A DNA stretch of 64,000 nucleotides. Source: an uncultured bacterium. Its GTDB lineage: Bacteria > Verrucomicrobiota > Verrucomicrobiia > Limisphaerales > UBA8199. Numbering within the stretch: position 1 is the stretch's first letter; each line of letters starts with the position of its first letter. A program made the translations under genes and the position numbers. Location of the stretch: positions 77,556 to 141,555 of the forward strand of contig CAVQND010000024.1 in the NCBI GenBank assembly GCA_963713735.1, given 5' to 3'. This document shows, in pieces, positions 43,891 through 62,218 of this stretch. Below the pieces are notes generated by a model. The model was not told where the DNA came from. It saw only the letters and a list, made by a program, of their open reading frames with translations, and did no database searches.

Positions 43891-45175
43891 TCATACTTCA
43901 TTCCCGCGGCTCTCACGCAGGGCCTTGAAGAGGGCCTCGAGGTTTTCCACGGGCGTGTTGCCCTGGAGGTTGTGCACCGAGTTGAAGACGAAGCCGCCCC
44001 CGGCATTGAAAAGCGAAATCCGCTCCCGCACTTCGCGATAGACCTGGTCGGGCGTGCCGAAGGCCATCGTTTTCTGCGTGTCCACGCCGCCGCCCCAGAA
44101 GACGAGGTCTTTGCCGAATTGACGTTTGAGGCCGGCGGCCTCCATCTGGGCGGCGGAGCATTGGACAGGATTGAGGATGTCGAAGCCGGCGTCGATGAAG
44201 TCGGGGATGAGCTGGTAAACCGAGCCGCAGGAATGAATGAAGGTCTTCCATCGGGAGCGGCGATGGATGAGGTCGGTGACCTGCTTGTGAAAGGGCTTGA
44301 ACAGGTCGCGATAGGCCTGCGCGGAGATAAACGGTCCGCGTTGCGTGCCGAAATCAGTGCCGGTAATCCAGGCCGCCTGGACGAGGTCCCCGAAAGAGGT
44401 CGATGAGCGTCTGGATATTCTGCAGGGCCAGGGCGCATTGGCGCTCGAATATGGAATAGACGTAATCCCGGCGGGTCTTGGTGGAAATGTACCACTCGGT
44501 GATGTCGCGGATGCCCTTGGGGTGCTTGAGCCATGGGGCGGGCACCTGGGCGATGTCGCCGAAGCCCGCGCCGGGGATGGTCAGGATGCAGCCGCAATGA
44601 GCGCGCTCCTGCACCCATTGCTTCTTCTCGCGGTAATAGGCCAGGTCGGCTTCGCCCAGCAAGCCAAATTCCTCGGTGTTGTCCTCGGGATTCAACCTGG
44701 CCTCATCAATGGGGTCCTGCTCGACAATGGTATCACAGAAATAGCCGCCCGCGGGCATGTGGCCCCTGGGGGGCGCGCTGGTGTCCCCTTCGGGGTAAAT
44801 GAACCAGCCGCCGTCCGGGGCGCGGGTGACATTGAAATTGCCCGGCACCAGGCAGCGGGTGCCGTCAAAGAGCGTAAAGGGCTTCCAGTCCTTGGATTCG
44901 GTGCCGAACATCGACCTTCGCGGCGCCACTCCGAGGACGTCGAGGCCCAAGGCTTCGCGGAGGGCGTCATCAATCTCGCCCAGCATCTGGTAAGGCTCGA
45001 TGACCCGCACCAGGCAGTCCGGTTGGCCCAGCACCAGGCGGCGCAGGCGCGTGACGGCTGAAACATGAATGCCGGTCACGGCCGTGCCGCCGAAGTCGGC
45101 CGCGACGCAGTCCGGTTGCTGGTGGTCGAGGGCGGCCTGCACTCGTTTGCGGGGGGTCCAATGTGAGGTGCTCAT
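43891..45175 (-). CDS. Uroporphyrinogen-decarboxylase (URO-D)-family protein. Frameshifted.
   Basis: URO-D/MtaA-like N-terminal region in ORF 44354..45175. C-terminal FGKDLVFWGGGVDTQ...GGGFVFNSVHN lies in ORF 43891..44145. Confidence 0.6.
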
Positions 45176-45261
45176 GGTTGCCTGTGTTACAGCCTGCGCC
45201 CAATTCAGTCAATTCAGGAATCGGCTTGTTGGGTGGGTGAAAGGAGGATAAGCTTTCAACG

Positions 45262-45477
45262 ATGAAGAACGAATTCACCGCCGAAATTCACCGCGAGGGC
45301 AAGTGGTTCGTGGCGTTCTGTCCGGAGGTGCCCGAGGCCAACGGCCAGGGGCGGACCAAGGAGGAATGTCTGCGGAGCTTGGCCGCCGCCATCGAGTTGG
45401 TCTTTGAAGAGCGGCGTGCGGCCTTCCGGCAACAGCGCCACGCGCAGGCCGAGGAAGCCATCGTCTCCATCGGATGA
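45262..45477 (+). CDS. hicB: HicB-family antitoxin
   Basis: MKNEFTAEIHREGKWFVAFCPEVPEANGQGRTKEECLRSLAAAIELVFEE. UPF0150 signature. Confidence 0.8.
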   Translation: MKNEFTAEIHREGKWFVAFCPEVPEANGQGRTKEECLRSLAAAIELVFEERRAAFRQQRHAQAEEAIVSIG

Positions 45478-45662
45478 AGCGGCGCGAACTGCTTCGGCAT
45501 CTCGAGGCGCACGGGTGCAGATTGAGGCGTGAAGGCGCCGGACACTCGCTCTACCACAATCCGGCCACGCACCAAATGCAGGCCGTTCCGCGCCACAACG
45601 AAGTGCCCGACATACTCGCCCGGAGAATCTGCCGCTGCCTTTCCATTCCCGACCCGAAGTGA
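45474..45662 (+). CDS. hicA: HicA mRNA-interferase toxin
   Basis: MKRRELLRHLEAHGCRLRREGAGHSLYHNPATHQMQAVPRHNEVPDILARRICRCL. 4-nt overlap with hicB. Confidence 0.8.
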   Translation: MKRRELLRHLEAHGCRLRREGAGHSLYHNPATHQMQAVPRHNEVPDILARRICRCLSIPDPK

Positions 45663-45699
45663 GCGGCTCCGGCACTGGTCCATCCAGGCTGGCACCTTG

Positions 45700-45942
45700 A
45701 CAAGCGCTGTCAATGTCGGGGAGTATGGGCGGCGATGCAAGCGCCGCCGGACAGCAAAGCAGAGGAATCGCCCCACGCTCATGTCTGGCCTGCGCCGGAG
45801 GCTGGAGACCGCATAACGACTTACCATTGGCGGTGGTTATCCTGGCAACTTGCGGTTGGTTTTTCGACTGCATGGGACAGCGGATTTTCGTGATTTCCCG
45901 CGAACCTGCGCTCAGGGAACTGCTCGGCGCGACCACTACCAA
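45700..45942 (+). repeat. Diverged (~90%) second copy of the promoter-proximal region and first ~45 codons of the MFS gene at 50164. Left boundary of the accessory island.
   Basis: Alignable base-for-base with 50124..50362 (ccttgacaa...gggagtatgggcggcgatgcaagcgccgccggacagcaaag...cagggaactgctcggcgcgac). Encodes AVVILATCGWFFDCMGQRIFVISREPALRELLGAT. Confidence 0.7.
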
Positions 45943-46632
45943 CGGCGCGGAGAGGGGGTGCTTCAGGGCTATCGCAACGGCTACGAGGACAAAGAGGTCC
46001 AGACCGCCGAAGGCCCGCTGCATCTGAAAATGCCGCAAGTGCGCGACACGATTGAAGCCTTTGAGAGCGTGTGGCTCCGAGCGCTGGTTCGGCGAAGTGA
46101 TAAGCTGGCGGCCCTGATCCCGCAGCTCTACGTCAAGGGACTGTCAACGCGGGACATCGAGGCCGCCCTCACCGACACGCTGGAGGTGGAGGGGGTAAGC
46201 AAGAGCACGGTCAGCACGTTGTGCGGGCAATTAAAGAAGGACTTCGAGCAGTGGCAGAACCGGGATCTGACCGAACACAAGATTCTGTATCTGTTTTGCG
46301 ATGGTATTTACACGCGGCTGCGTCCGGAGGATGAGCGGGCTGCGGCGGTGCTGTGTGCCTACCGGATCCAGGAGGACGGCAGGAAAGTGCTCCTGCATCT
46401 GGCGGTGGGCGACAAGGAGAGCACGGTCTGCTGGAAGAGCTTCTTCCAGGACATGAAACAACGGGGACTGGCCAAACCGCTCCTGGCCATCATCGACGGG
46501 AACAGCGGGCTGCGCAGAGCAGTCAGGGAGTGCTTTCCTGGCTCGCGGGTCCAGCGGTGTCAGGTGCATCGGATGCGCAACATCCCATGCGAGCTGGCGT
46601 GGCGTCAGGGTGACTCCGTCGGCGAACGGTGA
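45943..46632 (+). pseudogene. IS256-family (mutator-type) transposase fragment, truncated at both ends
   Basis: YRNGYEDKEV, YVKGLSTRDIEAAL, LFCDGIYTRLR, CWKSFFQDMKQRGL, LAIIDGNSGLRRAVRECFPGSRVQRCQVHRMRNI. Only about 230 of roughly 400 aa are present. Confidence 0.8.
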
Positions 46633-46893
46633 ACTGGAGGTTCTCCGCACGAACGCGAAGACCCGACAAGTTCTCCGGCTGGCGGCGCAGGGGCCAGCGG
46701 TAGCTGTCGCCGGTGAAATCCCACCGTTCGCTTTAAAAACCGGCTGTCATTTTTCCTTGAAATCTCGGCCCATCAGAGTAAAAACGTACCATCTGCCACC
46801 ACGAGCCGCTGACTCGCTTGGGTTCAGCCAACGACCCGCGTGCGGAAGACCGGTTGGGACTGACCCGACCGGCAACAACTAAACCTTGGCCAT

Positions 46894-47933
46894 ATGAAGA
46901 CGCGATCCTTAAAACTCGTTCGATTCCTTTCCCCGCTGTGCCTGGCCGTTTGGGCGGCAGCGCCACAGGCCGGTGCCCAGACACCGGCGCAACTCGCCAT
47001 TCAGACGTATGCGGGGCTGACCATCACGGGTGCGGTCGGGACGGTTTACGAAATTCAATGCGTCACGGACCTCGGCCAGACGAACGACGCGAGCGCCTGG
47101 CGTTGCCTGGAGTTTCTGCAACCGCCTGCCAGTCCCTATCTGTGGGCCGACAAGTCCGCTCCGGCCACGGGGCGGCGGTTTTACCGGGCGGTGCAGACTG
47201 GAGGGCCGACGAACATGGTCTTCATTCCGCCGGGGACGTTTCGGATGGGCAGCCCGACGAACGAGGTGGACCGGTATGGCGATGAGGGACCGCAGACGGC
47301 GGTGACGATCAGCCGGGGTTTTTGGATGGGCAAGTATTTGGTGACCCAAGGGGACTACCTGGCGTTGATGGGCAGCAATCCGAGCTATTTCAACACAAAC
47401 AACGGGTACAGCTTGGACTTGACTCGTCCGGTGGAGAGTGTGAGTTGGTTTGATGCCTCGAATTACTGTGCGGCCCTCACGGGGCAGGAACGGGCGGCGG
47501 GGCGGATAGCGGCCAACAGCGTGTATCGGCTGCCGACGGAGGCGGAATGGGAGTATGCATGCCGGGCGTGGACTTCGACGCGGTTCAGCTATGGGGATGA
47601 CCCCGGCTACACCAACTTGACGCAGACTACGCGTGGTACTCTGACAACAGCGGTGGAACGACGCATCCGGTGGGGCAGAAGTTGCCCAACCCGTGGGGCT
47701 TGTATGACATGCACGGGAATGTGTTGGAGTGGTGCCAGGACTGGTATGACGTTTATGCTGGCGGGATTGCCCTTGACCCCCAGGGGCCTGCCACGGGCTC
47801 GCGCCGCGTGATTCGCAGCGGCTTCTGGGGCCGCATCGCCGGGTGCTGCCGGTCTGCGGACCGCGACAACGACTACCCGGACGGCAGGCTCTTCAGCATC
47901 GGTTTCCGGGTTGTCCTGGCCCCAGGTCAGTGA
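46894..47933 (+). CDS. DGR target protein. Secreted FGE-sulfatase/C-type-lectin-fold protein with a C-terminal variable region. One frameshift at about 47620.
   Basis: Signal peptide MKTRSLKLVRFLSPLCLAVWAAAPQAGA. YAWYSDNSGGTTHPVGQKLPNPWGLYDMHGNVLEWC. C-terminus [41 protein letters not shown]. Confidence 0.8.
47804..47925 (+). repeat. DGR variable region (VR) at the 3' end of the target gene
   Basis: 122 bp colinear with 49028..49149. About 25 of 28 mismatches sit at template adenines. Confidence 0.8.
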
Positions 47934-48092
47934 GCTCAAGAGCCAGCGCGGAGCAGTCGAGGCGGAGCGAGGGACGAGCGAAGCCTGACTGCGGAGCGGG
48001 TGTGAGGATGTCAAGCGGGTAGGAATAAGAAAAGAAAAGCCCCGCGCAGCGGTCGCCAAATTTTTCGAGAACCGACGCCCCTGGCAATCTGA

Positions 48093-49020
48093 ATGCAACT
48101 GAAGGTCTTTGTTCTGCCGATTAAGAATCTCGGGGCTGCGGAGGCCGAGATGAATGGGTTCTTGCGTGGGCACCGGGTGCTGGCGGTGAAGAAGGAATTT
48201 GTGCCGGATGGGGAAAACTCCTTCTGGAGCTTTTGCGTGGAGTACCTGGATGGCGGCGGAGGGGGCGGACTGGTGCCGGGCGGCAAGCTGCCCAAGGTGG
48301 ACTACAAAGAGGTGCTCAAGCCGGAGGAGTTCGAGGTGTTCAGCCGGTTGCGCGACTGGCGCAAGGCCGTGGCGGAGAAGGAAGGGGTCCCGGTCTATGC
48401 TTCACCATCCACGATCCCAAGGAGCGAGTGATCTGCGCCGCCCACTTCCGGGAGCGGGTGATGCATCACGCGCTGATGAACCTCTGCGAGCCGGTGCTGG
48501 CCTTGTTTGAGCAGGTCTTGGCCAGCTACCAGACCGCGCCCGGGCGCGGCTTACCCATCGGCAATCTTACTTCCCAGCATTTTGCCAATTTCTACCTGGC
48601 CCCACTGGACCGGTTCATCAAGGAGCACCTGCGCCGCTGGGCCTGCGTGCGCTACATGGATGACTTCGTGGTGTGGGGTGAGAGCGGCGCCGACCTGCGC
48701 GGCGTGTGGCGGGAGGTGGAGGCCTTCCTCGCGGCGAAGTTGCGTCTGGTCCTGAAGCCAAACGTCGCCCTGAACCGGACGGCCTTCGGAATGGATTTTC
48801 TCGGGTATCGCGTCTTTCCGCAGGAGCTGCGGCTGGCCCGGCGGAGCAAGCTGCGCTTTGCCCGCAAGTTCCGCCGGTATGAATGCGAGTGGGTGGCGGG
48901 GCGGTGGACGGAGCTGCGCTTGCAGCAGCGGATGCAGGCGCTGGTGGCGTTCACCTTGCCCGCTCGCAGCCGACCCTGGCGGCGGCACGTGCTCCATCAA
49001 TTTGGGGTGGTGGCCAACGG
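48093..49020 (+). CDS. DGR reverse transcriptase. Frameshift at about 48420. The 3' end runs into the template repeat.
   Basis: [30 protein letters not shown] (motifs 1/2). [17 protein letters not shown] (the DGR-diagnostic IGxxxSQ). [10 protein letters not shown] (YMDD). MDFLGYRVF. No maturase or endonuclease domains. About 310 aa. Confidence 0.85.
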
Positions 49021-49027
49021 GCTCGAA

Positions 49028-49149
49028 CCGCGTGATTCGCGGCGGCAACTGGAACAACAACGCCAGGAACTGCCGGTCAGCGAACCGCAACAACAACAAC
49101 CCGGACAACAGGAACAACAACATCGGTTTCCGGGTTGTCCTCGCCCCAG
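49028..49149 (+). repeat. DGR template repeat (TR), AAC-rich
   Basis: cgcgtgattcgcggcggcaactggaacaacaacgccaggaactgccggtcagcgaaccgcaacaacaacaacccggacaacaggaacaacaacatcggtttccgggttgtcct. Encodes [39 protein letters not shown] in the VR frame. Confidence 0.8.
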
Positions 49150-49398
49150 CTCATCCGGAGCGTTGGATGACGGCCCGGCTGACCCGGCCCCCATCCTGTC
49201 CCCCGAATACGGTGTTCCGGGGCAAACCACGGTGGAACGAGGCCCGGTGTAAGTAGCGAAGCGGAGTCTCCGCGAAAGCTCCGCGCCTTTGCTGGCCCAA
49301 GGCGGGTAGACGCATCAACCATCACCTGCCTCCCCAGGACCTTTTTACAGGAACGGTTGGACTTGACGGATGCGCCCCTCTGGAACCATAACGGCAGC

Positions 49399-49806
49399 TC
49401 AGGCAGTGATGGCTTTTAACAATTGCGCGGGTGTAATGACGCCTGCGCCAAAGGGTTTCTGAAGGACCAACAGATCTTTGTCAAAGGTGACGAGAAAGCG
49501 AGCCTTGGCGGCCAGCGCGGCCGAAAGATAGGGGTCGTCCGCCGCATCCCGGCAGCGCTGTTTCCCCAACGGCATCGGCTCCACCAGGGTCACCCGCTCC
49601 AAATACCACGTCAGCCGCGCCGTGGCATTGTGCCTCGGCTGCTTTTGGCGAATCAACTCGGCGGCAACCTCCCTGGTCTCCTCCAATGTTTCGGTCAACC
49701 CGAAGGCGAAGAGCTGCCGCCTCGCGATCTTGACCAGGCACAGGTACGCCTCGCCGTTCCAGCAAGCGCCAGACGCCACCACGTTGGCATCAAGCACCAC
49801 GCGCAT
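49399..49806 (-). CDS. PIN-domain toxin (VapC-like, PIN_3 family)
   Basis: MRVVLDANVVASG, DDPYLSAALAAKARFLVTFDKDL. Confidence 0.8.
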   Translation of the reverse strand: MRVVLDANVVASGACWNGEAYLCLVKIARRQLFAFGLTETLEETREVAAELIRQKQPRHNATARLTWYLERVTLVEPMPLGKQRCRDAADDPYLSAALAAKARFLVTFDKDLLVLQKPFGAGVITPAQLLKAITA

Positions 49807-50053
49807 GTCTGGACTTTCTCACCCGCCGTTGAATCGTCAGAACCTCCTTAATCTCCACTCCCGTGGGTCCGGGTTCAGCCCCTGCGCCGGCGGACTCCAG
49901 GAGGGCCAGGTCGGCTTCGATCTCCCGCCGAATCTCCTCCCGTACCAACTGACGGAAAAACTCACTCACGTTGCCGTACTGTTGCTCGACCCGTTGCCTC
50001 ACAAACTCCGCCATGGTCGAGGGGAGAGAGATATTCATCAACTCCATCTTCAT
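49790..50053 (-). CDS. Ribbon-helix-helix antitoxin (ParD/CopG-like) paired with the PIN toxin
   Basis: MNISLPSTMAEFVRQRVEQQYGNVSEFFRQLVREE. 17-nt overlap with the PIN gene. Confidence 0.65.
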   Translation of the reverse strand: MKMELMNISLPSTMAEFVRQRVEQQYGNVSEFFRQLVREEIRREIEADLALLESAGAGAEPGPTGVEIKEVLTIQRRVRKSRHARGA

Positions 50054-50163
50054 CGGGCCGAGCTTACATCCAATGGCATCAAATGTAAAGCCAGGAAACT
50101 GTCAACTGGACAGCCGGCTGGCTCCTTGACAACGGGTGGGGATGTTGGGGAGTATGGGCGGCG

Positions 50164-51873
50164 ATGCAAGCGCCGCCGGACAGCAAAGGATCGGAATGGC
50201 CCCACGCTCAGGTTTCGCCTGCGGCAGGCGTTGGAAACAGCATCACAACTTACCATTGGCTGGTGGTTATCCTGGCAACGTGCGGTTGGCTCTTCGACTG
50301 CATGGGACAACGGATTTTCGTGATCTCCCGCGAACCGGCGCTCAGGGAACTGCTCGGCGCGACGGTGTCGGATGACACGGTCCGGGGCTGGGGCGGCCTG
50401 GCGACTTCGATGATGATGGTCGGCTGGGCGACCGGAGGCATCCTTTTTGGGCTGATGAGCGATCGCTGGGGACGGGTCAAGGCGATGGTCAGCACGCTGC
50501 TGGCCTACACCCTGTGCTCGGGGCTGGCGGGTTTCGCCCGCAACGGGACGGAGTTCCTGGTTTATCGCTTTTTGTTTGGCCTGGGCGTGGGCGGGATGTT
50601 CGGCTCGGCGACGACACTGGTGGCGGAGAGCGTGCCCCAGCGGGCCCGCACGCTGGCGCTGGGGCTGATGCAATCCCTTTCGGCAGGCGGGACCATGCTC
50701 GGCTCGGCCTTGAGCCTGAAGATCACGCCCGGACAGGAGAATTTCTGGGGCCATTTCAGCGGGTGGCAGGTCTTATGTTTTGCGGGGGTATGCCCGGCCA
50801 TCCTGGCGGCGCCGATGGGCCTGCTCCTCAAGGAACCTGATGCCTGGAACAAGGCCAAGGCCCTGGCCGCCATCCAAGGCCGGAGCAAAGCGGTCGGGTC
50901 AATGGCAGACCTGTTCACACACCCGCGCTGGCGCAGGGGCATGCTGGTCGGCGTTTGCCTGGGCGTGGCCGGCATGGTCGGCTTGTGGGGCATCGCGTTT
51001 TTCTCGCCGGAGCTGATCACGACCGCCTTGAAAAATCGCCCGTTGCAGACCGCAGACATCGTAAGGCCGGCCGAGGTTTGCGCCGCTCTGACCGCGCCCG
51101 CCAACCCTGCCCTGGCGCGCCTCAAGGCAAGACTGTCCCCGGAGGCAATCGGCCAATTCGCGGCCCTCCCGGGCGCGGGGGAGATTCCGGTCGGCACGGT
51201 CGAGGTCTTGCGGCAGGAGTTGAATCGAGCCATCCAGGGCGGCCAACTTTACGATGCCGAGGCCTTCAAGTCGCTCGCCCTCAGGAAGGCGACCCGGAAC
51301 CTGGTCAAGCTGGCCGAGAAGACCCATGCGCGAGAGGACCGGATATTCCTGAATCGGCAATTAGTGGAACAGCTCTTTCCCAGCGCCATTCTCGAGCTGC
51401 AAAAGACCATTGACGGGATGCGGAGCGGAGGCACGATGTTGCAGGACTTTGGGGCCGTGCTGGGGATGCTCACCTTCACGTTTGCAGCGTCCTATTTCAA
51501 CCGGCGCGCAGCCTTTCTGGGGGCTTTTCTGCTCTGCCTGGGGGCGGTGGCCTTCGTCTTTTATTCGCTCAAGTCGGCCACCGATATCTACTGGATGCTG
51601 CCGCTGATGGGCTTTGGCACCCTCTCGGTCTTCGCCGGCTACTCGATCTACTTCCCGGAACTGTTTCCGACCCGGCTGCGGGGGACGGGTGTCGGCTTGT
51701 GTTACAACACGGTACGCTACCTGACCGCGCCCTTTCCGTTCCTGCTGGGCTGGCTGAGCACCTTGATGCCCTTCCGCACGGTCGCCGTGATGATGTGCTC
51801 GATTTACCTCCTGGGCATCGTCGCCCTGTATTGGGCCCCCGAGACCAAAGGACAACCGCTGCCGGAGGACTGA
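50164..51873 (+). CDS. MFS transporter (about 14 TM segments with a central hydrophilic insert)
   Basis: HWLVVILATCGWLFDCMGQRIFVISREPALRELLGAT (TM1). GLMSDRWGRVKAM MFS motif. The true start may be a non-ATG codon downstream of 50164. Confidence 0.8.
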   Translation: MQAPPDSKGSEWPHAQVSPAAGVGNSITTYHWLVVILATCGWLFDCMGQRIFVISREPALRELLGATVSDDTVRGWGGLATSMMMVGWATGGILFGLMSDRWGRVKAMVSTLLAYTLCSGLAGFARNGTEFLVYRFLFGLGVGGMFGSATTLVAESVPQRARTLALGLMQSLSAGGTMLGSALSLKITPGQENFWGHFSGWQVLCFAGVCPAILAAPMGLLLKEPDAWNKAKALAAIQGRSKAVGSMADLFTHPRWRRGMLVGVCLGVAGMVGLWGIAFFSPELITTALKNRPLQTADIVRPAEVCAALTAPANPALARLKARLSPEAIGQFAALPGAGEIPVGTVEVLRQELNRAIQGGQLYDAEAFKSLALRKATRNLVKLAEKTHAREDRIFLNRQLVEQLFPSAILELQKTIDGMRSGGTMLQDFGAVLGMLTFTFAASYFNRRAAFLGAFLLCLGAVAFVFYSLKSATDIYWMLPLMGFGTLSVFAGYSIYFPELFPTRLRGTGVGLCYNTVRYLTAPFPFLLGWLSTLMPFRTVAVMMCSIYLLGIVALYWAPETKGQPLPED

Positions 51874-51950
51874 GGTCGTCGCAGCCTTCGTCGCAGCCTT
51901 TGTCGAAAACCGCAACCGAAGGAAAACCGTCGCCGGAGGACCGACGCCCC

Positions 51951-52026
51951 AATCCTAATCCTAATCCTAATCCTAATCCTAATCCTAATCCTAATCCTAA
52001 TCCTAATCCTAATCCTAATCCTAATC
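51951..52026. repeat. (AATCCT/CCTAAT) x about 12.7 perfect hexanucleotide microsatellite
   Basis: aatcctaatcctaatcct... 76 bp without interruption. Lies between convergent genes. Confidence 0.9.
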
Positions 52027-52139
52027 GGGGCCGCCCGTGACCAAAGGACAACCGCCCCCGCAGGATTGACGGGCGCGTATCCGCCTTTGGGAACCGCTTA
52101 TGTCGGACAGCTTGAGCCTGGCTGATGCCCGCCCGCGCC

Positions 52140-53927
52140 TCACGGCCAGCGCAGGCGATAGAACCGGGTCTGATAATTCGTCCACCAGGGATCGCTGAAG
52201 TAGGACGAGCCGCTGCTGAGGGTGTTCGTGGCCAGTGGAGACCAAGTGGGATTGGCCAGATTAGTCGTGGCCTCGACCACGACGACAATACTAGGTGTGC
52301 CGGTGATGTTGAAGCCAAACCGGTTCGCCCGGACACCGAAGCTGGCATCCCTGGTCTGCACCTGGGGGGTCCACAGCACGGTCGGGCGACCGCCAAACGT
52401 CGGGCCCCAGCCCGTGGTCCCAGGCAAGTAATAGATGGTCGCATTGTTGTCGCCTGAGAACACAGAGTTGCCATTGAGACTGGGGGCGTTACCCTTGAAA
52501 TAGGCCCCTGTCAGGTTGGGGCAGAGCCAGAACGCCTGGTCGAAGATGTTGGTGACGCTGTTGGGGATCGTTACCGTGATCAGGTGTTCGTCGCCTGCGA
52601 ACGCATCGTCCCCGATGTTGCTGACGCTATTAGGGATGCTGTAGGAGCTTCCGGCTTCGCCTCCTGGGTATTGAATGAGCAAGGTCCGGTTCTTGTCGAA
52701 CAACGCCCCATCCACACTGCTATAGACGGAATTGAGTGCATCCACCGTGATCGCTGTCAGGCTGTGGCAGCGACAGAACGCCATGTCCCCGATGCTGGTA
52801 ACATTGCTGGGGATCGTGACGCTGGCCAGGCCGCAGCCATAGAACGCAAAGTCCCCAATGCTGGTGACGTTGTTGGGGATCGTGACGCTGGTCAGGCTGC
52901 TGAGGTAGAACGCATGGTCGAAGATGTTGGTGACGCTGCTGGGGATCGTGTAACCTCCAACTTTACCTGGCGGGTATTGAATGAGCGCGGTCTGGCTCTT
53001 GTCGAACAAGACCCCATCCAGACTGCTATAGATGGGATTGAGGGCATCCACCGTGATGGCCGTCACGCTCCTGCAGCCACAGAACGCATCGTTCCCGATG
53101 CCAGTGACACTTTTGGGGATTGTGATTTGGGTCAGGCTGGTGCAGCCATAGAACGCCCATTCCCCGATGCTGGTGACGCTGTTGGGGATCGTGACGCTGG
53201 TTAGGCCGGTGCAAAACGAGAACGCATCGTTCCCGATGCTGGTGACGCTGCTGGGTATCGTGATGCTGGTCAGGCCGGTGCAGTCATAGAACGCCTCCGT
53301 CCCGATGTTGGTGACGCTGTTGGGGATCGCGTAGGAGGTTCCGGCTTTGCGTTGCGGGTATCGGATGAGGCTGGTCTGGCTTTCATTGAACAAAACCCCA
53401 TTCACACTGGCATAAGTGGAATTGAGGGGATCCACTGTAATGGCTGTCAGGCTCGTGCAGCCGGAGAACGCCTCGTTCCCGATCCTGGTGACACTTTTGG
53501 GTATCGTGATTTTGGTCAGGCTGGCGCAGTCATAGAATGCCCCTTCCCCGATGCTGGTGACGCTGCTGGGGATCGTGACGCTGGTTAGGCTGGTGCAGTA
53601 ATAAAACGCCCAGTCCCCCATGCTGGTGACGCTTTTGGGGATCGTCACGCTGGTCAGGCTGGTGCAGCTTGAGAACGCGTACTGTCCGATGCTGGTGACC
53701 GGCAGGCCATTGACGGCGCTCGGAATGGTCAGCGCGCCGCCAGGACCAGTGTATCCCGTGATGGTGATCGCGCCGTTATTGGTCGTGCAACTGAATTGGG
53801 CTTGCACGACGCCAGTCGGCGCCAACAGCAAGAGCACCGGCAGCAGCCTCGTGGCGCAGGCAGTTGTTAAGCGCCCGGCCATCGTCTTCGGGCAAGTCGT
53901 TCTCTCACTGAGGGTTTGGGTTTTCAT
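52140..53927 (-). CDS. Secreted BspA-type leucine-rich-repeat (LRR_5) protein
   Basis: Signal peptide LLPVLLLLAPTGVVQA. At least 15 repeats of about 23 aa (IPSSVTSIGxxAFxxCTSLTSVTIP). Confidence 0.75.
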   Translation of the reverse strand: MKTQTLSERTTCPKTMAGRLTTACATRLLPVLLLLAPTGVVQAQFSCTTNNGAITITGYTGPGGALTIPSAVNGLPVTSIGQYAFSSCTSLTSVTIPKSVTSMGDWAFYYCTSLTSVTIPSSVTSIGEGAFYDCASLTKITIPKSVTRIGNEAFSGCTSLTAITVDPLNSTYASVNGVLFNESQTSLIRYPQRKAGTSYAIPNSVTNIGTEAFYDCTGLTSITIPSSVTSIGNDAFSFCTGLTSVTIPNSVTSIGEWAFYGCTSLTQITIPKSVTGIGNDAFCGCRSVTAITVDALNPIYSSLDGVLFDKSQTALIQYPPGKVGGYTIPSSVTNIFDHAFYLSSLTSVTIPNNVTSIGDFAFYGCGLASVTIPSNVTSIGDMAFCRCHSLTAITVDALNSVYSSVDGALFDKNRTLLIQYPGGEAGSSYSIPNSVSNIGDDAFAGDEHLITVTIPNSVTNIFDQAFWLCPNLTGAYFKGNAPSLNGNSVFSGDNNATIYYLPGTTGWGPTFGGRPTVLWTPQVQTRDASFGVRANRFGFNITGTPSIVVVVEATTNLANPTWSPLATNTLSSGSSYFSDPWWTNYQTRFYRLRWP

Positions 53928-54827
53928 GGTTTTCGACCTAGCGGAGTTGATAGCTGATGGGAGCTGCTCTTTGACGCGCCGCATCATTGCGGCTGCGCGG
54001 GTGAAAGAGAATTGGTTCCTGGTCGCGCTCATGTTGAAAGACGCTCCTGGCCGAGGAGCGCACCCATTTGGCCGAACGCTTGAGCAGTCGCCACATGCCC
54101 GCCCAAAACCGATCTTGTCGTCGCCACTGCCAATTCATCAGCAACTGGCTCCCCACCAGACCGTCGTCATTATTGAACGGTTTGTCAGCATTCCTGATGC
54201 CGGAGTTCAAAGGTTAGAGAAAGTTGTTGGGGGATAACGGATTAGCGAAACTCTCCTCCGGTGGAAACCCATCATGCTGTGCCAGAATGGCAGCCTCAGT
54301 GCCACTGTGGCATACGTGCCTCAGCGCGTCAGATCGTCGCCCAGTTAATCAGATTGTATTATTTTATTGACGGCGGCGGTTGTTGGGGGAGCGATGGAGT
54401 CGCGGCTGCGAGACAGCGGGGCCGCTGAGTTCATCAAGGCGGTGGAGCATGGCTGGTGCCTCTCCCCGAGGGAGAGGGGCGCTGCCAGGGCCGTCCCTCA
54501 ATCTGGATTCCGCTGAAAAACCCCCTGTTTTTGAAGATGAGCAAAGATGCATGAAAAGTGTCGGGAATTCTTACGCGCTAATTTGGTCTGTACGCGATTT
54601 GAATGATCAAGGGATACATCGGAGATGGTCTTTTTCACTGTCTCTTTTTGATCAGAGGGGTTTTTCAGCAGAATCAATCTGATTAACTGACCCCTGCTAT
54701 GGGGTGGACTGGCAAGGCTGCCGCCGCATCAGGCCCCAGCCGTGCCAATCGCCTTTCCATCATCGGTCTTAAACTCGCGAATAATTTTTGCTTGATTTTT
54801 AGGACTGCTTGGGCTGCACTCCAGCCC

Positions 54828-55286
54828 ATGCAACTCAAAGTGGCACTCTCGCTGGCCCTGCTGGCGATTTCAGCCTTGGCTGCGGAGTCCTCAACTTATG
54901 GGCAGCGGATTGTGGCGGCGGTCCTGATGGGGGAAGCCTGGGGCGACGGCGAGATCGGCATGACCGCGGTGGCCGAAGTCATTCACAACCGGGCAGAAAA
55001 GACCGCCAAGACACCGTTGGCGGTCGTGCTCAAGAAGGGCGAGTTCTCATCGCTGAGGCGCGCGACGCCGGAGGCGCTTTACCAGAAGTTCTGCCGAAAG
55101 AGGGATTTCCAGACGGCCCTTCGCATCGCCAAGACCTGCTACAACACACCGGAGAAGCTGCCCAACATCACCAGGGGCGCGATTTACTATGACCATAGGA
55201 GGAACCGTCCGCCCTGGCTCGGTGAAGTGCGGCTTGTGGCCTGCGTGGGCAACCAGAATTTTTACGTTCCGAAAGATGCGCATTAA
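54828..55286 (+). CDS. SleB/CwlJ-like cell-wall hydrolase domain protein, secreted
   Basis: Signal peptide MQLKVALSLALLAISALAA. AAVLMGEAWGDGEIGMTAVAEVIHNR resembles the Hydrolase_2 family. Confidence 0.55.
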   Translation: MQLKVALSLALLAISALAAESSTYGQRIVAAVLMGEAWGDGEIGMTAVAEVIHNRAEKTAKTPLAVVLKKGEFSSLRRATPEALYQKFCRKRDFQTALRIAKTCYNTPEKLPNITRGAIYYDHRRNRPPWLGEVRLVACVGNQNFYVPKDAH

Positions 55287-56027
55287 CGATTGACTCGGCA
55301 GGCGGCGGCGCGCCGAAAGCAGTTTCCTGCCAGAGTTTTTCGTTGATGATGAGACTCGACTCCGCCTTCCCCGACACCGGCCCGGTGGAGTATCTGACCG
55401 GCTTGCGCTTCATTGACGACCTCGTCGTCGGCGGCTGGCATCTGGACGCCGAAGGGATGCTGCCCAGTTCCGGACCGGCCGGGCTTGGGGGTGTCACTGA
55501 ACCCGGAGGCGCCGGCGAAATACACGCGCGGTGAGAAGCTGCTGGAGTAGTTCACAGCCGATGTCCCTTGAGCCGCTTCCTCCAATGCGCCATCGAGACG
55601 CCCCGCTCCCGGCAACTCATCTCCGGTGGCGCCACCAACCACAGCCGGGTGACGGTGGAGTTCAAGAAAGGTGAACTCGCATTCAAGACGAAGGCGGCAA
55701 AGAACTCCAGGCCCGCGCGTGCCACTCTGCGCCCTTTGCCGTCTGCAAGCAAAGACTCGACATCTCCCAGTTCAGGAGCGACATTCCGTGCGATGCGATG
55801 CGGTTTCCAAACAGTGATTTGGGGGCGCCAGATTGACGATCTCGATCTGGTCCTCGATCAGATCGTGGCCTGCGGCTACGAAGGCGTCGAAATAGCGCAG
55901 AGTCCTCGAGACATTCTCGTGTCCGGTAAGCTCGTGAACAGGGGTGACCCGACCAAGTTCACGATCGTCTTGCCGGAATCCCTGCAACATGTCCCACCAG
56001 CACGGCTCTTGGCTGCCAGATAGGATC

Positions 56028-56465
56028 ATGAAGAGATTGCTATTCATTGACGACGAAAGGCTGCCCATGGAGTCTTACGAGAAGGTTCTCAAGCGGAAGG
56101 GCTACGAGGTCGTGAGGTGCTACACGGTTGACGAAGCTATCGCGTTTGCGCGCTCCAATCCCCCGTCTGTTGACGCGATCATCCTTGACCTTATGATGCC
56201 TGCGGGTGAAGCGTTTAGGAACGAGGATACGGAAGGTGGACTCAAGACGGGCGTGCTGCTTTACCGCGAACTCCGCAAGGACCTGCCGAATGCGCCCGTG
56301 CTTGTGCTCACGAACTATCCGCAACCGGAGATTCTGAGTGCTCTTCCCAGTGGTGATAAGAGGGTATCGGTGAAGACCAAGTATTCGTGCCCCCCCTTGG
56401 AACTGCCAGAGGTGCTGGAAGCTCTTTGGAGCAACGTCGCGAAAGAGATGGAGAATCCTGAATGA
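56028..56465 (+). CDS. Stand-alone receiver (REC, CheY-like) domain protein
   Basis: MKRLLFIDDE. Acceptor D in AIILDLMMPAGE. Conserved T in LVLTNY. Lower local GC. Confidence 0.7.
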   Translation: MKRLLFIDDERLPMESYEKVLKRKGYEVVRCYTVDEAIAFARSNPPSVDAIILDLMMPAGEAFRNEDTEGGLKTGVLLYRELRKDLPNAPVLVLTNYPQPEILSALPSGDKRVSVKTKYSCPPLELPEVLEALWSNVAKEMENPE

Positions 56466-57151
56466 ATGTCACACGGAATTTCGCAGAAATCACGAATCGA
56501 ACGCTCGCGGAGTGCGAAGCCGAGGTCCGGCGCCTCAGCGAGATCCTCCTGTCTCCGCACACAGCACCTCCGGGCAGCCCTGAAGCTCGAGAAAAGACCG
56601 CCGCCATGTTCGAAGAGTGGGCCCTGACTGTCCTCGTCAGGGTGTTCGGAGGCGACTGCGTGCCAGCCCAGAAGCCCTACCTCATCGAAAAGGCTGCAAC
56701 GTATGCTTCTGACAGGCTCATTCCGGCCTTCTGGCGCCTTCTCGATCCGAGGTATCCCAAGGAGATCAGGAGCGCGGCGCGCAGGGGAATGCTCGTGATC
56801 CTGCGGAGGAGCCTTTCCGGTGACTTGCAGGAGGGCGAGCTTTCCGAAGGAACAGGAAGGGCGAAGGACGATTCATTTCTGCCCGAGGCAGTGGCTGCGG
56901 GATGGGAGGAGCCTTCGGAGCGCCGGTTCCGCGATTTGGTGCGACTGGAAGCGAGGGGCACAATTTCTCTTGCGGAACAGGAGGAACTCGAAAGGTTGGC
57001 CGGACTTCGACGGAAGGCCGTGTCGCCGATGCCAGCCGATGAAGCCGTCCTGGAAGAGCAGCGGCTCACCGCGCTGAGGAAAGTCTTAGGCGCGTTGGAA
57101 GACTATGCCCGGAGTTTTGACACCACGGATTCGTCGCGGCCCAGCGCCTGA
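56462..57151 (+). CDS. Hypothetical protein (229 aa), translationally coupled between the REC and HNH genes
   Basis: 4-nt overlap with the REC gene. Overlaps the HNH gene. Helical and charged. No recognised motifs. Confidence 0.4.
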   Translation: MNVTRNFAEITNRTLAECEAEVRRLSEILLSPHTAPPGSPEAREKTAAMFEEWALTVLVRVFGGDCVPAQKPYLIEKAATYASDRLIPAFWRLLDPRYPKEIRSAARRGMLVILRRSLSGDLQEGELSEGTGRAKDDSFLPEAVAAGWEEPSERRFRDLVRLEARGTISLAEQEELERLAGLRRKAVSPMPADEAVLEEQRLTALRKVLGALEDYARSFDTTDSSRPSA

Positions 57152-57704
57152 CTGCGTCTTGACGCCTCGGAACTGCAGGGATGCCCTGCCCGAGCTGCGA
57201 CGCGATTTTCAGGACCGCTGTGCTTACTCGATGCAGCACTTGCGGTACGCGGGCGGCCTTACATGCATGGAGGTGGATCACTTCGATCCAGGCAAGAGGG
57301 ACGATCCCGTCCAGGACTACGACAACCTCTTTCTGGCCTCTCGCCACTGCAACAGGGCCAAGGGGACCTTCTGGCCGACCGACGAGGAGGCAGCCCAAGC
57401 CATACGCTTGCTCAACCCCTGCAAAGAGACGGATTACGGCGAGCACATTTTTGAAGACTCTGTGACGAGCAAACTGGTGGGAGCAACACCCCCTGGCCGC
57501 ACCCAAATTCGAGTCTGCGACCTGAACGCGCCGCACCTCGTGGAGGAGCGAAAGCTCAGGGCTGACATTCTGGCGATGTTGGCCAAGCTGACCAGCAAGG
57601 CGAGGTCCAAAAACGTCGGCCTACCCTCCGAACTCTTGGCAAAGGTGGCCGAGGCCACGGACTTCATGATTCCGCCAATTCCTCCCCCGCCTTCTTCTTC
57701 CTGA
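57105..57704 (+). CDS. HNH endonuclease-domain protein
   Basis: CAYSMQHL...CMEVDHFDPGKRDDPVQDYDNLFLASRHCNRAKG (C..C / H-N..N / C..C pattern). Confidence 0.6.
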   Translation: MPGVLTPRIRRGPAPDCVLTPRNCRDALPELRRDFQDRCAYSMQHLRYAGGLTCMEVDHFDPGKRDDPVQDYDNLFLASRHCNRAKGTFWPTDEEAAQAIRLLNPCKETDYGEHIFEDSVTSKLVGATPPGRTQIRVCDLNAPHLVEERKLRADILAMLAKLTSKARSKNVGLPSELLAKVAEATDFMIPPIPPPPSSS

Positions 57705-57888
57705 GCCGTGCGGATGGGGGCTCGGCGTCTTTGAATCAGCGGCGCAGCCATGGCGTTGGCCACCAGTTGCTCAGCGTAACGGTGGTTCTATGCATTGCCG
57801 GTCTGGCGCTTGACTTGCAGGCACATGTGCTTCGTCAAGAATCGACTTTCGCTGCATTCGCTCGCGGAAGAAGTCACCCGCAACTGCG

Positions 57889-59385
57889 CTACGACTTCCT
57901 CAGCGGCGGTCCGGGCGCAAGAAATGGACGGCTTGCATCCACACGCAGCCAGGCCAGCGCGCCGAGAAAGTAGGAGGCGGCAAACACCACGAACACCGCC
58001 TTCCAATTCCAAAGGATAGCGACCTTGGCGGCGACCAGCGGGCTGAGCATGGCGCCGATGGCGCCCGCCGAATTCATACAGCCGCTCACCGTCCCGGCGC
58101 AACGTCCGCCAATGTCCACCGAGGCGGACCACATAGCCGGCAGGGCCAGGTCCTGAAAAGCCGAGGCGATGCAAATGATGAGGATGACCGGCCAAGGAGA
58201 ATTGGTGCGCGAGACCGCCAGTGCGCAAGCGGCGGCTACGCCCAAGCCAATAGCCCCCTGCAGGCTGCGCCCCCAGCGCTGGCTCCCCGTGGAGCCGATC
58301 AACACGTCGGACAGCCGCCCCCCCGCCAGGCAGGCCAGGCCACCGACCAACAACGGCAACCCGGTCATGATTTCCGAATGGGAATAATCCACCTGGAATT
58401 GGTCCTTCAAGTATTTGGGCAGAAAGGTGACGTAGAAGAACCAACTGAAGCTGGCGGTGAACGAAGCCACATACAGCCAGAGCAGGTTCGGCGAGAAAAA
58501 CAGCCGCCCCCACGGAACCTGGGCCGGAGCCTCGTCCTGGTAAATGGACTCCTGCCCGGCGGCTCCGGCGCGGATGAGCGCGCACTCGGCCTGGTTGGCC
58601 GAGGCCTGATCCTCAGGCCGATCCCGGAACCAAACAAAGAAGAGCAGCGCCCACAACATGCCCGCTGCGCCCAGAATCCAGAACGCGCGCTGCCAGCCTC
58701 CCGCCACCACCACGAGGCTGCCGATGATGGTTGGCGCAATGGCTCCGCCGAACCTGCTGGAGAGCCAAATTGCGCCCTGCGCCGCCCCACGCTCGCGGAA
58801 GGGGAACCAGCGGCCCAGCGCCCGCGCGATGTTCGGATACGCCCCCGCCTCGCCCAGGCCAAAAAGAAAGCGGACCAGCACCATCGCGCCAACAAATATC
58901 CAAGGTTCGGGGCGGGGAAAAAACCAGCCCGCCAGGGCCCTCACCCCGCCCGTCAGCGCCGTGAACAAAGACCACCAAAGCACAATCAGCAGGATAATGG
59001 CGCGCGGGCGGAACCGGTCTGCCAGCCAGCCCCCGGGCAAACCGAACAAAACGTACCCGAGCACAAAAGCTGAGAATACCCAGCTCATTCGTTCGGTCGC
59101 GCCGTCCTGGGCCAGTTTGGCCCGGGCCTCACTGTCGTTGGCCAGACCCTTTGCCGCCAGCGTCCGCTCGTCGCGAGCCGAGAGCCGATCGAAATTGAGG
59201 TCACGCTCGATCTCGCCCTGCACGCGCATGATGCAGATGCGGTCGAGGTAGGTCAAGCAGGCCAGCGAACAAAGCAGGACCAGCACCAGGTAGCGCACGC
59301 GGGTCGGCCGGACGCCGGTGAGACCGGCAGGCGCGTTTTCGGTATTCGACTGGTGCTGAATAGTCAGATCGATTTTTGCCCCCAT
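57889..59385 (-). CDS. MFS transporter
   Basis: Twelve-TM profile. GLPGGWLADRFRPRA MFS motif. Confidence 0.8.
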   Translation of the reverse strand: MGAKIDLTIQHQSNTENAPAGLTGVRPTRVRYLVLVLLCSLACLTYLDRICIMRVQGEIERDLNFDRLSARDERTLAAKGLANDSEARAKLAQDGATERMSWVFSAFVLGYVLFGLPGGWLADRFRPRAIILLIVLWWSLFTALTGGVRALAGWFFPRPEPWIFVGAMVLVRFLFGLGEAGAYPNIARALGRWFPFRERGAAQGAIWLSSRFGGAIAPTIIGSLVVVAGGWQRAFWILGAAGMLWALLFFVWFRDRPEDQASANQAECALIRAGAAGQESIYQDEAPAQVPWGRLFFSPNLLWLYVASFTASFSWFFYVTFLPKYLKDQFQVDYSHSEIMTGLPLLVGGLACLAGGRLSDVLIGSTGSQRWGRSLQGAIGLGVAAACALAVSRTNSPWPVILIICIASAFQDLALPAMWSASVDIGGRCAGTVSGCMNSAGAIGAMLSPLVAAKVAILWNWKAVFVVFAASYFLGALAWLRVDASRPFLAPGPPLRKS

Positions 59386-60236: not shown

Positions 60237-60299
60237 CGGATGAGGTTACGCAGAAGAGCAAATTGGCGCAAAAAGAATTCGCTTGAGTAACCAGGCGGC

Positions 60300-61296: not shown

Positions 61297-61370
61297 AAGA
61301 GACTTTCGACGGTTTGACCGTGTTCAATCGCGGGAGCCGCCGAGCAACAGAACAGAAAGGAAAAACATAT

Positions 61371-61595
61371 ATGTCGTTAATGCCAATGTTGGCGGAAGGA
61401 CTGACCGGCAATCTCCACGTCGGCCTGGCGGCGCTGGGCGCGGCCCTGGGCGTGGGCTTCATCGGCATGAAGGCCTCCGAAGCGGTCGGACGCAATCCCG
61501 GTGCGGCCACGAAGATTCTGGTCCAGTCAATCCTGGCCATTGCCTTCGCCGAGGCCATCGTGTTCTACGCGTTGTTCCTTGTGCCCAAGCAGTGA
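61371..61595 (+). CDS. atpE: F0F1 ATP synthase subunit c
   Basis: MSLMPMLAEGLTGNLHVGLAALGAALGVGFIGMKASEAVGRNPGAATKILVQSILAIAFAEAIVFYALF. Confidence 0.85.
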   Translation: MSLMPMLAEGLTGNLHVGLAALGAALGVGFIGMKASEAVGRNPGAATKILVQSILAIAFAEAIVFYALFLVPKQ

Positions 61596-61663
61596 CCAGA
61601 GGCCATCGCTTGGGCGCAGGGCCGATTGAACTTTGCGCCTGAGTCCGACCCATTCGCGGCGTT

Positions 61664-62209: not shown

Positions 62210-62218
62210 CCTTTCTAT

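Follow-up and report, generated by a model that had tools for sequence, protein, structure and literature searches.

Diversity-generating retroelements (DGRs) of the HRDC type, with FGE-sulfatase/C-type-lectin-fold targets as in the Treponema denticola type, have been described as 'Architecture C' (Wu et al. 2018, PMC5758913). The DGR in the 64,000-nucleotide stretch of DNA analysed here (the window) has the same order of target gene with variable repeat (VR), HRDC gene and reverse transcriptase (RT) gene with the template repeat (TR) at its 3′ end, the same adenine-specific differences between TR and VR, and a target of the FGE-sulfatase fold with a C-terminal VR. In contrast to the described elements, its RT and HRDC genes are truncated and its target gene is frameshifted. 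The element around it resembles IS256-family insertion sequences and the 'transporter IS', which hold passenger genes inside their inverted repeats: shared features are a Mutator/IS256-type DDE transposase, imperfect inverted repeats of about 27 nt, an 8-bp target duplication, insertion at several unrelated sites, and transposase-less derivatives that keep the ends. Here, however, an entire DGR cassette of about 2.9 kb (target, HRDC, RT and TR) travels as passenger, and no paper linking a DGR with an IS256-type transposon was found in the literature searched.

Two further comparisons concern the locus as a whole (Table 1). Like the variable toxin-antitoxin and defence cassette hotspots between core genes, the slot varies among close relatives, from empty to occupied by Uma2, hicBA or PIN-RHH plus Uma2, but no recombinase and no conserved cassette boundary signal were found in it. 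Homology-facilitated illegitimate recombination, in which one homologous anchor is combined with a microhomology join, is described for naturally transformable bacteria. The window is similar in that a homologous allele is collinear with it on one side, a 6-nt GC-rich microhomology forms the join on the other, and foreign DNA of a related genome seems to have taken the place of resident DNA; it differs in that the process and the roles of donor and recipient are read from the sequence. We propose that the window probably carries two alleles of the slot joined head to tail, through homology on one side and the microhomology CGCGAC on the other.

Table 1. Features of the URO-D/MFS slot in the window
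Feature	Coordinates	Strand	Remarks
URO-D-like gene, 5′ part	44354..45175	-	conserved left flank of the variable slot
hicB-like antitoxin gene	45262..45477	+	weak UPF0150 match (E=0.01); named homologues
hicA toxin gene	45474..45662	+	PF07927 HicA_toxin, 8.7e-8, above gathering score
Upstream MFS 5′ relic	45687..45942	+	leader of ~48 nt, CTTGACA motif, ATG at 45735, codons 1 to ~67
Putative illegitimate MFS/IS256 junction	45937..45942		MFS codon ~67 joined to IS256 nucleotide ~230 at CGCGAC
Decayed IS256-family transposon with DGR	45938..49367	+	block-wise homology to L021 6529-10877
IS256-family transposase remnant	45938..46690	+	codons ~50-273, ~330-nt deletion, last ~34 codons
DGR target gene	46894..47933	+	signal peptide, small N-terminal domain, FGE-sulfatase/C-type-lectin fold
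Variable repeat (VR)	47793..47929	+	3′ end of target gene
HRDC accessory gene remnant	48093..48398	+	residues 1-102 of 151
Reverse transcriptase remnant	48400..49252	+	residues 65-113 and 161-401 of P0001
Template repeat (TR)	49017..49153	+	inside 3′ end of RT reading frame
Right terminal inverted repeat	49340..49367	+	pairs with left repeat in L021
PIN-domain toxin gene	49399..49806	-	PF13470 PIN_3, 8.7e-13; TIGR00305
RHH/ParD-like antitoxin gene	49790..50053	-	DUF6290 1.6e-3 and TIGR02606 ParD 1e-6, both below cut-offs
Downstream repeat copy	50116..50371	+	leader and first ~69 codons of intact MFS gene
Intact MFS transporter gene, 569 aa	50164..51873	+	MFS_1 5e-26, Sugar_tr 1.6e-21; right flank of slot

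Comparison with related contigs (L numbers) suggests that the interval between the URO-D-like and MFS genes is a hypervariable cassette slot in this Verrucomicrobiota group. The URO-D-like flank is syntenic at 84-91% nucleotide identity with L001, L037, L038, L048 and L095 up to window position 45182 (the L095 counterpart is PF01208 URO-D), and full-length orthologues of the MFS gene with 81-91% identity were identified in L001-L003, L033-L039, L048 and L095. An empty site, which the initial annotation had recommended looking for, was found in these Verrucomicrobiota: the distance from the URO-D-like gene to a single intact MFS gene is 119 nt in L038 and 76 nt in L037, and a Uma2 gene alone occupies the interval in L001, L035 and L048. 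Both parental-type alleles are present in relatives as well. The L095 slot, which reads URO-D, hicB(A) and intact MFS, aligns collinearly first with window 45214-45955 and next with 50116-51875, and the L094 slot reads URO-D, PIN-RHH and Uma2 on a contig that ends before any MFS gene. PIN-RHH directly beside MFS was seen in the window only. Moreover, the spacer motif TGCGCCCC, which adjoins PIN in L094, recurs in the window immediately after the right repeat of the transposon. The MFS 5′ regions of L037 (empty) and L095 (hicBA) are 96% identical.

The slot in the window contains the MFS 5′ end twice. Pairwise alignment of 45687-45933 with 50116-50363 gave 87.5% identity over 248 aligned nt (E=1.5e-87), with 30 mismatches and one 1-nt gap, which confirms the pairing proposed earlier at about 90%. 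The repeat includes a 42-nt exact core occurring twice in the window against zero expected occurrences, and no third copy of the repeat was found in the window. It takes in a leader of about 48 nt before the MFS start and the first 66-69 codons, rather than the 45 or so first counted. In the upstream copy the CTTGACA motif of the leader is conserved, while a 1-nt deletion near 45831 breaks the frame after codon 32; the MFS frame does not run straight into the transposase, as had been thought, and it is a different frame that is fused to it. To the left of this relic the synteny with L001 continues, and in L095 hicBA and the MFS 5′ end form a stretch collinear with it. The upstream copy is 83.6% identical to that of L095 and so not especially near it; L095 would therefore be an example of the allele type and not the donor.

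The two copies look like alleles or xenologues rather than the paralogues assumed in the initial annotation. They are 87.2% identical to each other, and each matches the single orthologue of L033 at 88-90% and that of L038 at 86-88%; they are not sister sequences, because their mutual identity is no higher than their identity to either orthologue. In a tree of the MFS 5′ copies bootstrap support was low, the 250-nt repeat being too short to resolve them. An old MFS duplication in the window lineage, with the transposon and toxin-antitoxin cassettes accumulating between true paralogues and a later deletion from codon 67 to IS256 trimming the upstream copy, would lead one to expect the strong divergence (12.5%) and is compatible with a microhomology deletion at the junction, and a second MFS 5′ fragment does exist in L003. 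We nevertheless consider it unlikely. A single MFS gene stands at the locus in all ten close relatives examined, several of them with clean empty sites; since neither copy is the closest relative of the other, the duplication would have to be older than several lineage splits and to have been lost repeatedly; and L095 has a complete single-copy allele collinear with hicBA plus the upstream fragment. The L003 duplication appears to be independent, as its copies are 92% alike and only about 70-75% identical to those of the window. That the repeats are diverged, mark an old recombination and are no fresh target-site duplication, as stated initially, is supported.

We found that the IS256 fragment and the DGR form one unit, in which the DGR is a passenger placed after the transposase stop and ahead of the right repeat. 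The full element in related contigs measures 4.6 kb, is bounded by terminal inverted repeats of 27 nt and is flanked by an 8-bp target duplication. It is present in L021-L024, from four independent samples, with inverted repeats at 6300-6326 and 10852-10878 and the target duplication tcccagcg/ttccagcg, and its in-silico excision restores a host reading frame of 402 aa (AAA_14/DUF4143). L025 carries a transposase-less derivative which keeps the tip of the left repeat. Homology among the window, L021 and L025 ends at the identical nucleotide (49367), and the three genomic contexts are unrelated to one another. By comparison, the intact phage-borne DGR of L026 lacks the right inverted repeat and shares only window 47000-49288 with it; the flanking parts therefore derive from the insertion sequence. 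The nearest intact relatives of the DGR are phage-borne beside a terminase (L026) or in other mobile contexts (L029), not in a transposon. What is modestly new at this locus is the IS256 transposon with its DGR; the island as such is an ordinary relic.

The window copy of this transposon has decayed. Its left inverted repeat and first ~230 nt are gone, and compared with L021 it has internal deletions of about 330, 343 and about 190 nt. The transposase remnant matches PF00872 Transposase_mut (3.7e-51, profile positions 51-266 of 379) and is 94% identical in nucleotides to L021 6529-7200; the L021 transposase gene reaches 326 bits with the NCBIfam IS256 model. It had been described as truncated at both ends; the 5′ loss holds, and the supposed 3′ loss is an internal deletion, with the microhomology TGC(A/G)AGCTG at its junction. 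With the left end lost, the copy is predicted to be unable to move.

Similarly, the DGR first reported as complete turned out to be partial. Alignment with the intact RTs P0001, P0002, P0004 and P0019, together with tblastn, showed that residues 1-64 and 114-160 of the 90%-identical P0001 (401 aa) have no counterpart, so that the N-terminus and the LKMDVRKYFDS motif region, which holds the first catalytic aspartate, are missing. The match to RVT_1 covers only positions 110-184 of 205 and falls short of the gathering score, and the RT deletion junction carries the microhomology GGTGCTCG. The HRDC remnant, affected by the 343-nt deletion relative to L021 and L026, matches only profile positions 2-24 of 68, and its end was mapped by tblastn with the intact L026 protein. 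In the target gene a +2 frameshift near 47620 (two extra nucleotides compared with L026) places FGE-sulfatase profile positions 3-142 in one open reading frame and 169-254 in another, with the switch at residue 245/246 by tblastn. Because of the three deletions and the frameshift, the DGR is most probably an inactive fossil. The VR/TR pair itself is real: the two repeats differ at 27 of 137 nt, with 24 of the 27 mismatches at TR adenines, and the TR is nearly identical across the window, L021, L025 and L026.

The MFS/IS256 junction was mapped by comparing three sequences, the two MFS 5′ copies and the IS256 of L021. Under the preferred reading of two joined slot alleles, allele 1 would have consisted of spacer, hicBA and the MFS leader with its 5′ end, and allele 2 of spacer, PIN/RHH and MFS, having earlier received the IS256-family transposon with its DGR passenger. 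An illegitimate crossover at CGCGAC between the MFS gene of allele 1 and the transposase region of allele 2 would have cost the transposon its left inverted repeat and stranded the MFS 5′ fragment as an orphan. The most economical pathway would be homology-facilitated illegitimate recombination, in which incoming DNA from a related strain (the hicBA allele) was anchored by homology in or to the left of the URO-D gene and its other end was joined inside the resident transposon. Three microhomology-mediated deletions and a frameshift may then have followed in the immobilised transposon. We infer the order of events, the resident allele and the recombination pathway, and any direction of transfer would be read from one genome; the related genomes did not yield the very precursor that this model predicts (URO-D, full transposon, PIN-RHH, MFS).

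A chimera of the assembly, merging two coexisting strains with different slot alleles into a tandem arrangement absent from any cell, seems very improbable. The source is apparently a metagenome-assembled genome, its habitat harbours many related strains, and at least one 1-nt indel in the window is suspicious. However, the 6 nt shared where MFS meets the transposase interior are much shorter than any k-mer or overlap used in assembly, and a misjoin induced by the 250-nt repeat would switch inside it, not at its end into unrelated DNA. The single-base frameshifts (-1 in the upstream MFS copy, perhaps +2 in the target) could be assembly errors, since the URO-D-like flank also shows a 1-nt indel (+1 nt near 44395 relative to relatives); the deletions of 190-343 nt cannot be.

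The content of the slot has at least three separate origins, rather than belonging to one 4.4-kb island: the DGR transposon with its sharp end at 49367, the PIN/RHH cassette resident in the same slot in L094, and hicBA with the MFS 5′ end, collinear with the L095 allele. The proposed test of composition does not set it apart, as the island matches its flanks and the genome in GC (0.621 versus 0.620 in the flanks) and tetranucleotides (median distance). The initial observation was confirmed in part, and its interpretation is partly supported. Site-specific insertion of a single integrative island into the MFS 5′ end, bringing its own replacement 5′ end in the manner of many integrase-driven islands and prophages, is very unlikely: diverged gene-end direct repeats around cargo are its classic signature and a 42-nt identical core lies within the repeat, but that core is the ribosome-binding and start region, equally conserved in island-free orthologues, no integrase or recombinase gene was found between the repeats, and the cargo is composite, with the left junction in the transposase gene at a 6-nt microhomology.

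The hicBA and PIN/RHH genes are two unrelated toxin-antitoxin pairs. HicA was confirmed by its profile match, and the assignment of HicB depends on the weak UPF0150 match and on homologues (66-96% identity) that bear the name HicB family antitoxin; the hicB-like gene overlaps the hicA start with its 3′ end. The PIN/RHH pair was correctly recognised. The pair lies outside the transposon; the PIN gene has an 84%-identical homologue in the L094 slot, and the RHH gene overlaps the PIN start and is kept together with PIN in L094. The suggestion that these addiction modules stabilise the DGR is not supported, as the DGR has decayed despite the flanking pairs, and the pairs are gained and lost independently among relatives.

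The IS256 fragment and the DGR lying between the two MFS 5′-end copies had been listed as separate components in the initial annotation. Both are real, and we identified that they jointly constitute one transposon. The window transposase gene is truncated and non-functional, and its remaining fragment matched PF00872 (3.7e-51). By way of the truncated RT homologue P0003 we reached contigs from four independent samples (L021-L024), which carry a 413-aa IS256-family transposase, the FGE target, HRDC and RT genes in this order. The full-length transposase of L021, 94% identical to that of the window at the nucleotide level, scored 326 bits against NF033543 IS256 (cut-off 150). The L021 unit is 4,579 bp long and is bounded by 27-nt imperfect inverted repeats (78% complementary), the two transposon ends being GGTGATGTCCCAAGCTTCCTGTAAAAA and CCTTTTTACAGGRACNNTTGGACTTGAC. 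It is flanked by an 8-bp target duplication (tcccagcg/ttccagcg, 7 of 8 positions matching), and in silico removal of the unit with one duplicate restored a continuous 402-aa AAA_14/DUF4143 frame. The L021 copy is full-length, but its HRDC and RT genes each contain a frameshift, and the two lesions are the same in the four samples.

Coordinates of the features in the window and in related contigs, and content of the interval (slot) between the URO-D-like gene and the MFS gene
Feature	Window	Related contig	Identity or content
MFS 5′ end, upstream copy	45687-45933		
MFS 5′ end, downstream copy	50116-50363		
MFS gene, intact	50164-51873		569 aa
Junction MFS fragment/transposase interior	45937-45942		CGCGAC
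Transposon segment	45928-46599	L021 6529-7200	94%
Transposon segment	46588-48397	L021 7521-9372	76%
Transposon segment	48400-48498	L021 9716-9814	90%
Transposon segment	48493-49367	L021 10003-10877	89%
Left inverted repeat		L021 6300-6326	
Right inverted repeat	49340-49367	L021 10852-10878	
DGR target gene	46894-47933		
VR	47793-47929		
HRDC remnant	48093-48398		
RT remnant	48400-49252		
TR	49017-49153		
TR/VR comparison, regions used		L021 8766-8925, 10515-10674	
TR/VR comparison, regions used		L025 9691-9860, 10461-10620	
Slot		L038	119-nt spacer
Slot		L037	76-nt spacer
Slot		L001, L035, L048	Uma2 gene
Slot		L033/L034, L002/L047, L003	unrelated DNA
Slot	45214-45955, then 50116-51875 (collinear)	L095	URO-D, hicB(A), intact MFS
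Slot		L094	URO-D, PIN-RHH, Uma2; PIN 84% identical to window's
MFS 5′-end duplication in L003		L003 1963-2127, 9946-10110	92%
Y1/RayT-like gene 5′ end, second copy (161 nt)		L003 9221-9380	98.8%
Second hicBA-like pair		L095 14282-14697	
BspA-like leucine-rich-repeat protein gene	52140-54032, minus strand		

Compared with L021, the window copy keeps only the right one of the two repeats; the left repeat is gone, as are the first ~230 nt, and there are three internal deletions of about 330, 343 and 190 nt. Two internal transposon deletions carry microhomologies of 8-10 nt. In three unrelated genomic contexts, the homology to L021 and to L025, a derivative without transposase, breaks off at a single shared position, window 49367. 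The element thus occupies three sites: the URO-D/PIN spacer of the window, an ATPase gene in L021-L024, and the interval between Laminin_G_3 and esterase genes in L025. The left repeat survives in L025 as its tip (GGCGATGTCC), and the RT deletion of L025 is its own, differing from that of the window. The closest intact DGR, on contig L026, adjoins a phage terminase gene; its homology to the window is limited to 47000-49288, so the outer parts of the window element derive from the IS. Neither an IS256 gene nor the right inverted repeat was found in the distant RT relatives L029, L090 and L091, and the transposon-DGR association is confined to one sublineage. The chances seem to us evenly balanced that an IS256-family transposon took up a complete HRDC-type DGR between its transposase gene and right inverted repeat, and carried it to three or more chromosomal positions in Verrucomicrobiota of peat soil. 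None of the transposon-borne copies examined was fully intact. One copy is full-length with two frameshifts, one lacks the transposase and one is truncated, a natural decay series that shows the way in which such cassettes disappear.

The window DGR, described as complete in the initial annotation, is a fossil whose parts are now broken. The RT reading frame matched RVT_1 at positions 110-184 of 205 only, under the gathering score. Alignment to the intact, 90%-identical RT P0001 (401 aa) shows that residues 1-64 and 114-160 are gone, and with them the LKMDVRKYFDS motif region. The HRDC accessory gene ends at residue 102 of 151, with profile positions 2-24 of 68 matched. The target gene, which has an FGE-sulfatase fold, contains two extra nucleotides near 47620; the resulting +2 frameshift divides it into two frames and parts the signal peptide and N-terminal region from the VR-bearing region. 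An assembly error is a residual possibility for this +2 frameshift. Single-base frameshifts may also be assembly errors, since an A-run in the window URO-D-like gene (near 44395) is one A longer than in L037, L038 and L048. That gene is split into two ORFs, being either a pseudogene or affected by an assembly indel. The deletions of 190-343 nt cannot be assembly errors.

Comparison of VR with TR showed 27 differences over 137 positions, and 24 of these fall on TR adenines. The DGR did act at this locus. Two of the three non-adenine mismatches fall near the repeat 3′ end. Across the window, L021, L025 and L026 the TR hardly varies and the VRs differ at TR-adenine positions, which indicates diversification in each lineage. 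We also observed that a 9-nt unit, CTGGAACAA, is present in the phage-borne L026 TR and absent from the TRs of all three transposon copies; it is likewise absent from the VRs of the window and L021, and is kept in the L025 VR. Retrohoming may thus have gone on in two lineages after the 9-nt TR deletion. The near-identical TRs, the adenine-position VR differences and the mirroring of the TR deletion in two of three VRs suggest that the DGR was still diversifying its target while carried by the transposon. Throughout the RT family (P0001-P0019), the TR is located within the 3′ end of the RT reading frame (window 49017-49252), so that the RT C-terminus, which does not vary between homologues, corresponds to the TR translated in a different frame.

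The MFS 5′-end repeat proved real on pairwise alignment: the alignment of the two copies spans 248 nt and is 87.5% identical, the differences being 30 mismatches and one 1-nt gap (E=1.5e-87). Their 42-nt exact core occurs twice in the window and was not found in 100 shuffles, and there is no third repeat copy within the window. The downstream copy comprises the leader and the first 66-69 codons of the MFS gene (MFS_1, 5e-26), more than the ~45 codons first estimated. The upstream copy has its ATG at 45735, as in the downstream copy, and MFS homology up to ~45942. Its frame had been thought to run straight into the transposase; it is already broken after 32 codons because of a 1-nt deletion near 45831. 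A sigma-70 promoter scan gave no match in either copy, so a CTTGACA motif conserved in all MFS orthologues is the sole basis for the earlier 'promoter-proximal' label. An Rfam scan of 44.5-52.5 kb also gave no match. Pairwise identity was 87.2% between the two window copies, 88-90% between each of them and the single L033 orthologue, and 86-88% between each and L038. We relied on these identities only, because a neighbour-joining tree of the 250-nt repeat, in which the window copies do not group together, had support too low to place them. Judged by these values, the window copies appear to behave as two alleles whose lineages are as far apart as distinct relatives at the species level, unlike a recent internal duplication.

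Orthologous loci were gathered by MFS protein scans of Verrucomicrobiota genomes and peat metagenomes. The left flank (41.2-45.18 kb, up to the start of the URO-D-like gene) is conserved, as is the MFS gene, both at 84-91% nucleotide identity; the slot between them is variable. The proposed search for empty sites returned two, L037 and L038, with a spacer only. The spacer motif next to PIN in L094 (TGCGCCCC...) stands directly after the transposon right repeat in the window, and a second, diverged copy lies in the window URO-D/hicB spacer. Apart from this URO-D-proximal motif, comparison of the slot alleles revealed neither a conserved repeat at the cassette boundaries nor a recombination signal. 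The MFS 5′ regions of L037 (empty) and L095 (hicBA) are 96% identical and yet the two differ in hicBA, so cassette turnover is fast; the difference reflects a very recent gain or loss of hicBA. L095 also has a second hicBA-like pair ~4 kb downstream of its MFS gene.

The MFS fragment and the transposase interior have six nucleotides as their sole shared sequence at the junction, to the left of which the window is collinear with L095 and L001. Such a microhomology join with collinear sequence on its other side is what a product of homology-facilitated illegitimate recombination shows. As the most economical history we infer four steps, both in their order and in their pathway. First, a genome with URO-D, PIN-RHH and MFS would have gained the transposon in its URO-D/PIN spacer. 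DNA from a relative with URO-D, hicBA and MFS would then have recombined in, with a homology anchor on the URO-D side and an illegitimate join of incoming MFS codon ~67 to nucleotide ~230 of the resident element. The spacer, left repeat and transposase gene start would have been replaced in a third step, leaving an orphan MFS 5′ fragment, and the immobilised element would finally have decayed. Swapping donor and recipient gives the same product and was ranked lower, because the join would then be needed inside the homologous anchor. The predicted precursor allele (URO-D, full transposon, PIN-RHH, MFS) was not found among the relatives examined.

Other origins were weighed against this history. 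Tandem MFS paralogy later trimmed by deletion, in line with the 'paralogous' 5′ ends of the initial annotation, is improbable: MFS is single-copy at the locus in all relatives examined, and the window copies are not sisters, being no closer to each other than to the L033 orthologue. An assembly chimera is unlikely because the junction has a mere 6 nt in common. An integrase-type island bringing a replacement 5′ end fails, because no integrase or recombinase ORF or Pfam match lies in 45.7-50.1 kb, the cargo is composite, and the 42-nt core is the conserved MFS start region, likewise kept in island-free orthologues. A tandem-duplication model, which predicts two cargo copies, initially identical repeats and RHH/PIN rather than hicBA upstream of the first copy, was rejected, as was IS-mediated adjacent deletion, because the junction lies ~230 nt within the element and not at its end. 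The suggested composition check gave no foreign signature: the island has a GC content of 0.621 (whole window, 0.620) and its tetranucleotide distance is the median one for windows of equal size, which fits exchange between close relatives.

Both toxin-antitoxin pairs are independent residents of the slot. The PIN/RHH pair was confirmed with Pfam and NCBIfam (PIN_3 PF13470 above cut-off; RHH/ParD weakly, 1e-6). For the HicB/HicA pair, HicA stands by PF07927 above cut-off, and the HicB call rests on a weak UPF0150 match (E=0.01) and named homologues. The genes overlap by 4 nt and 17 nt within the pairs. These modules had been thought to stabilise the DGR; its decay by three deletions and the presence of the cassettes without a DGR in L094 and L095 argue, indirectly, against this. 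The apparently neat island, a working DGR guarded by addiction modules, is thus corrected to an ordinary decayed mosaic relic in a recombination hotspot, with a dead DGR. The locus is a clear instance of alleles stacked in a cassette slot through illegitimate recombination, and both parental allele types are still found in the same habitat.

IS elements with passenger genes are known. A literature search for a DGR within an IS256-type or other transposon found nothing relevant, and we rate a DGR as an IS256-family passenger as a combination of known kinds without a match in the literature searched. The window DGR belongs to the HRDC-containing class with FGE/C-type-lectin targets (Architecture C, PMC5758913); that survey treats DGR horizontal transfer by plasmids and phages and does not mention transposons. 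If true, a DGR riding in a simple DDE transposon would be an undescribed vehicle for DGR spread beside phages, plasmids and integrative conjugative elements (ICEs), and a targeted-hypermutation cassette with its own secreted lectin-fold target gene could hop within and between genomes without phage or plasmid.

In window 51833-52069, the last 41 nt of the MFS gene, encoding APETKGQPLPED and the stop, recur downstream at 51904-51944 (71%) and 52029-52069 (83%), on either side of a hexamer array, (CCTAAT)n, at 51948-52032. The two recurrences have the appearance of 3′-end relics mirroring the 5′ relic, which suggests that the MFS gene anchors recombination at either side. The stretch 51874-60325, which contains a BspA-like gene and has the most deviant tetranucleotide use of the whole window, is without a counterpart in L002/L047; there, the homologue of window 60326-63999 comes almost immediately after the MFS gene. 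Contig L003 carries an independent MFS 5′-end duplication of its own, within 1963-2291 and 9221-10110. At 2131 its upstream copy joins a Y1/RayT-like transposase gene, the 5′ end of which is present a second time, and the cargo in between is a set of unrelated membrane proteins.
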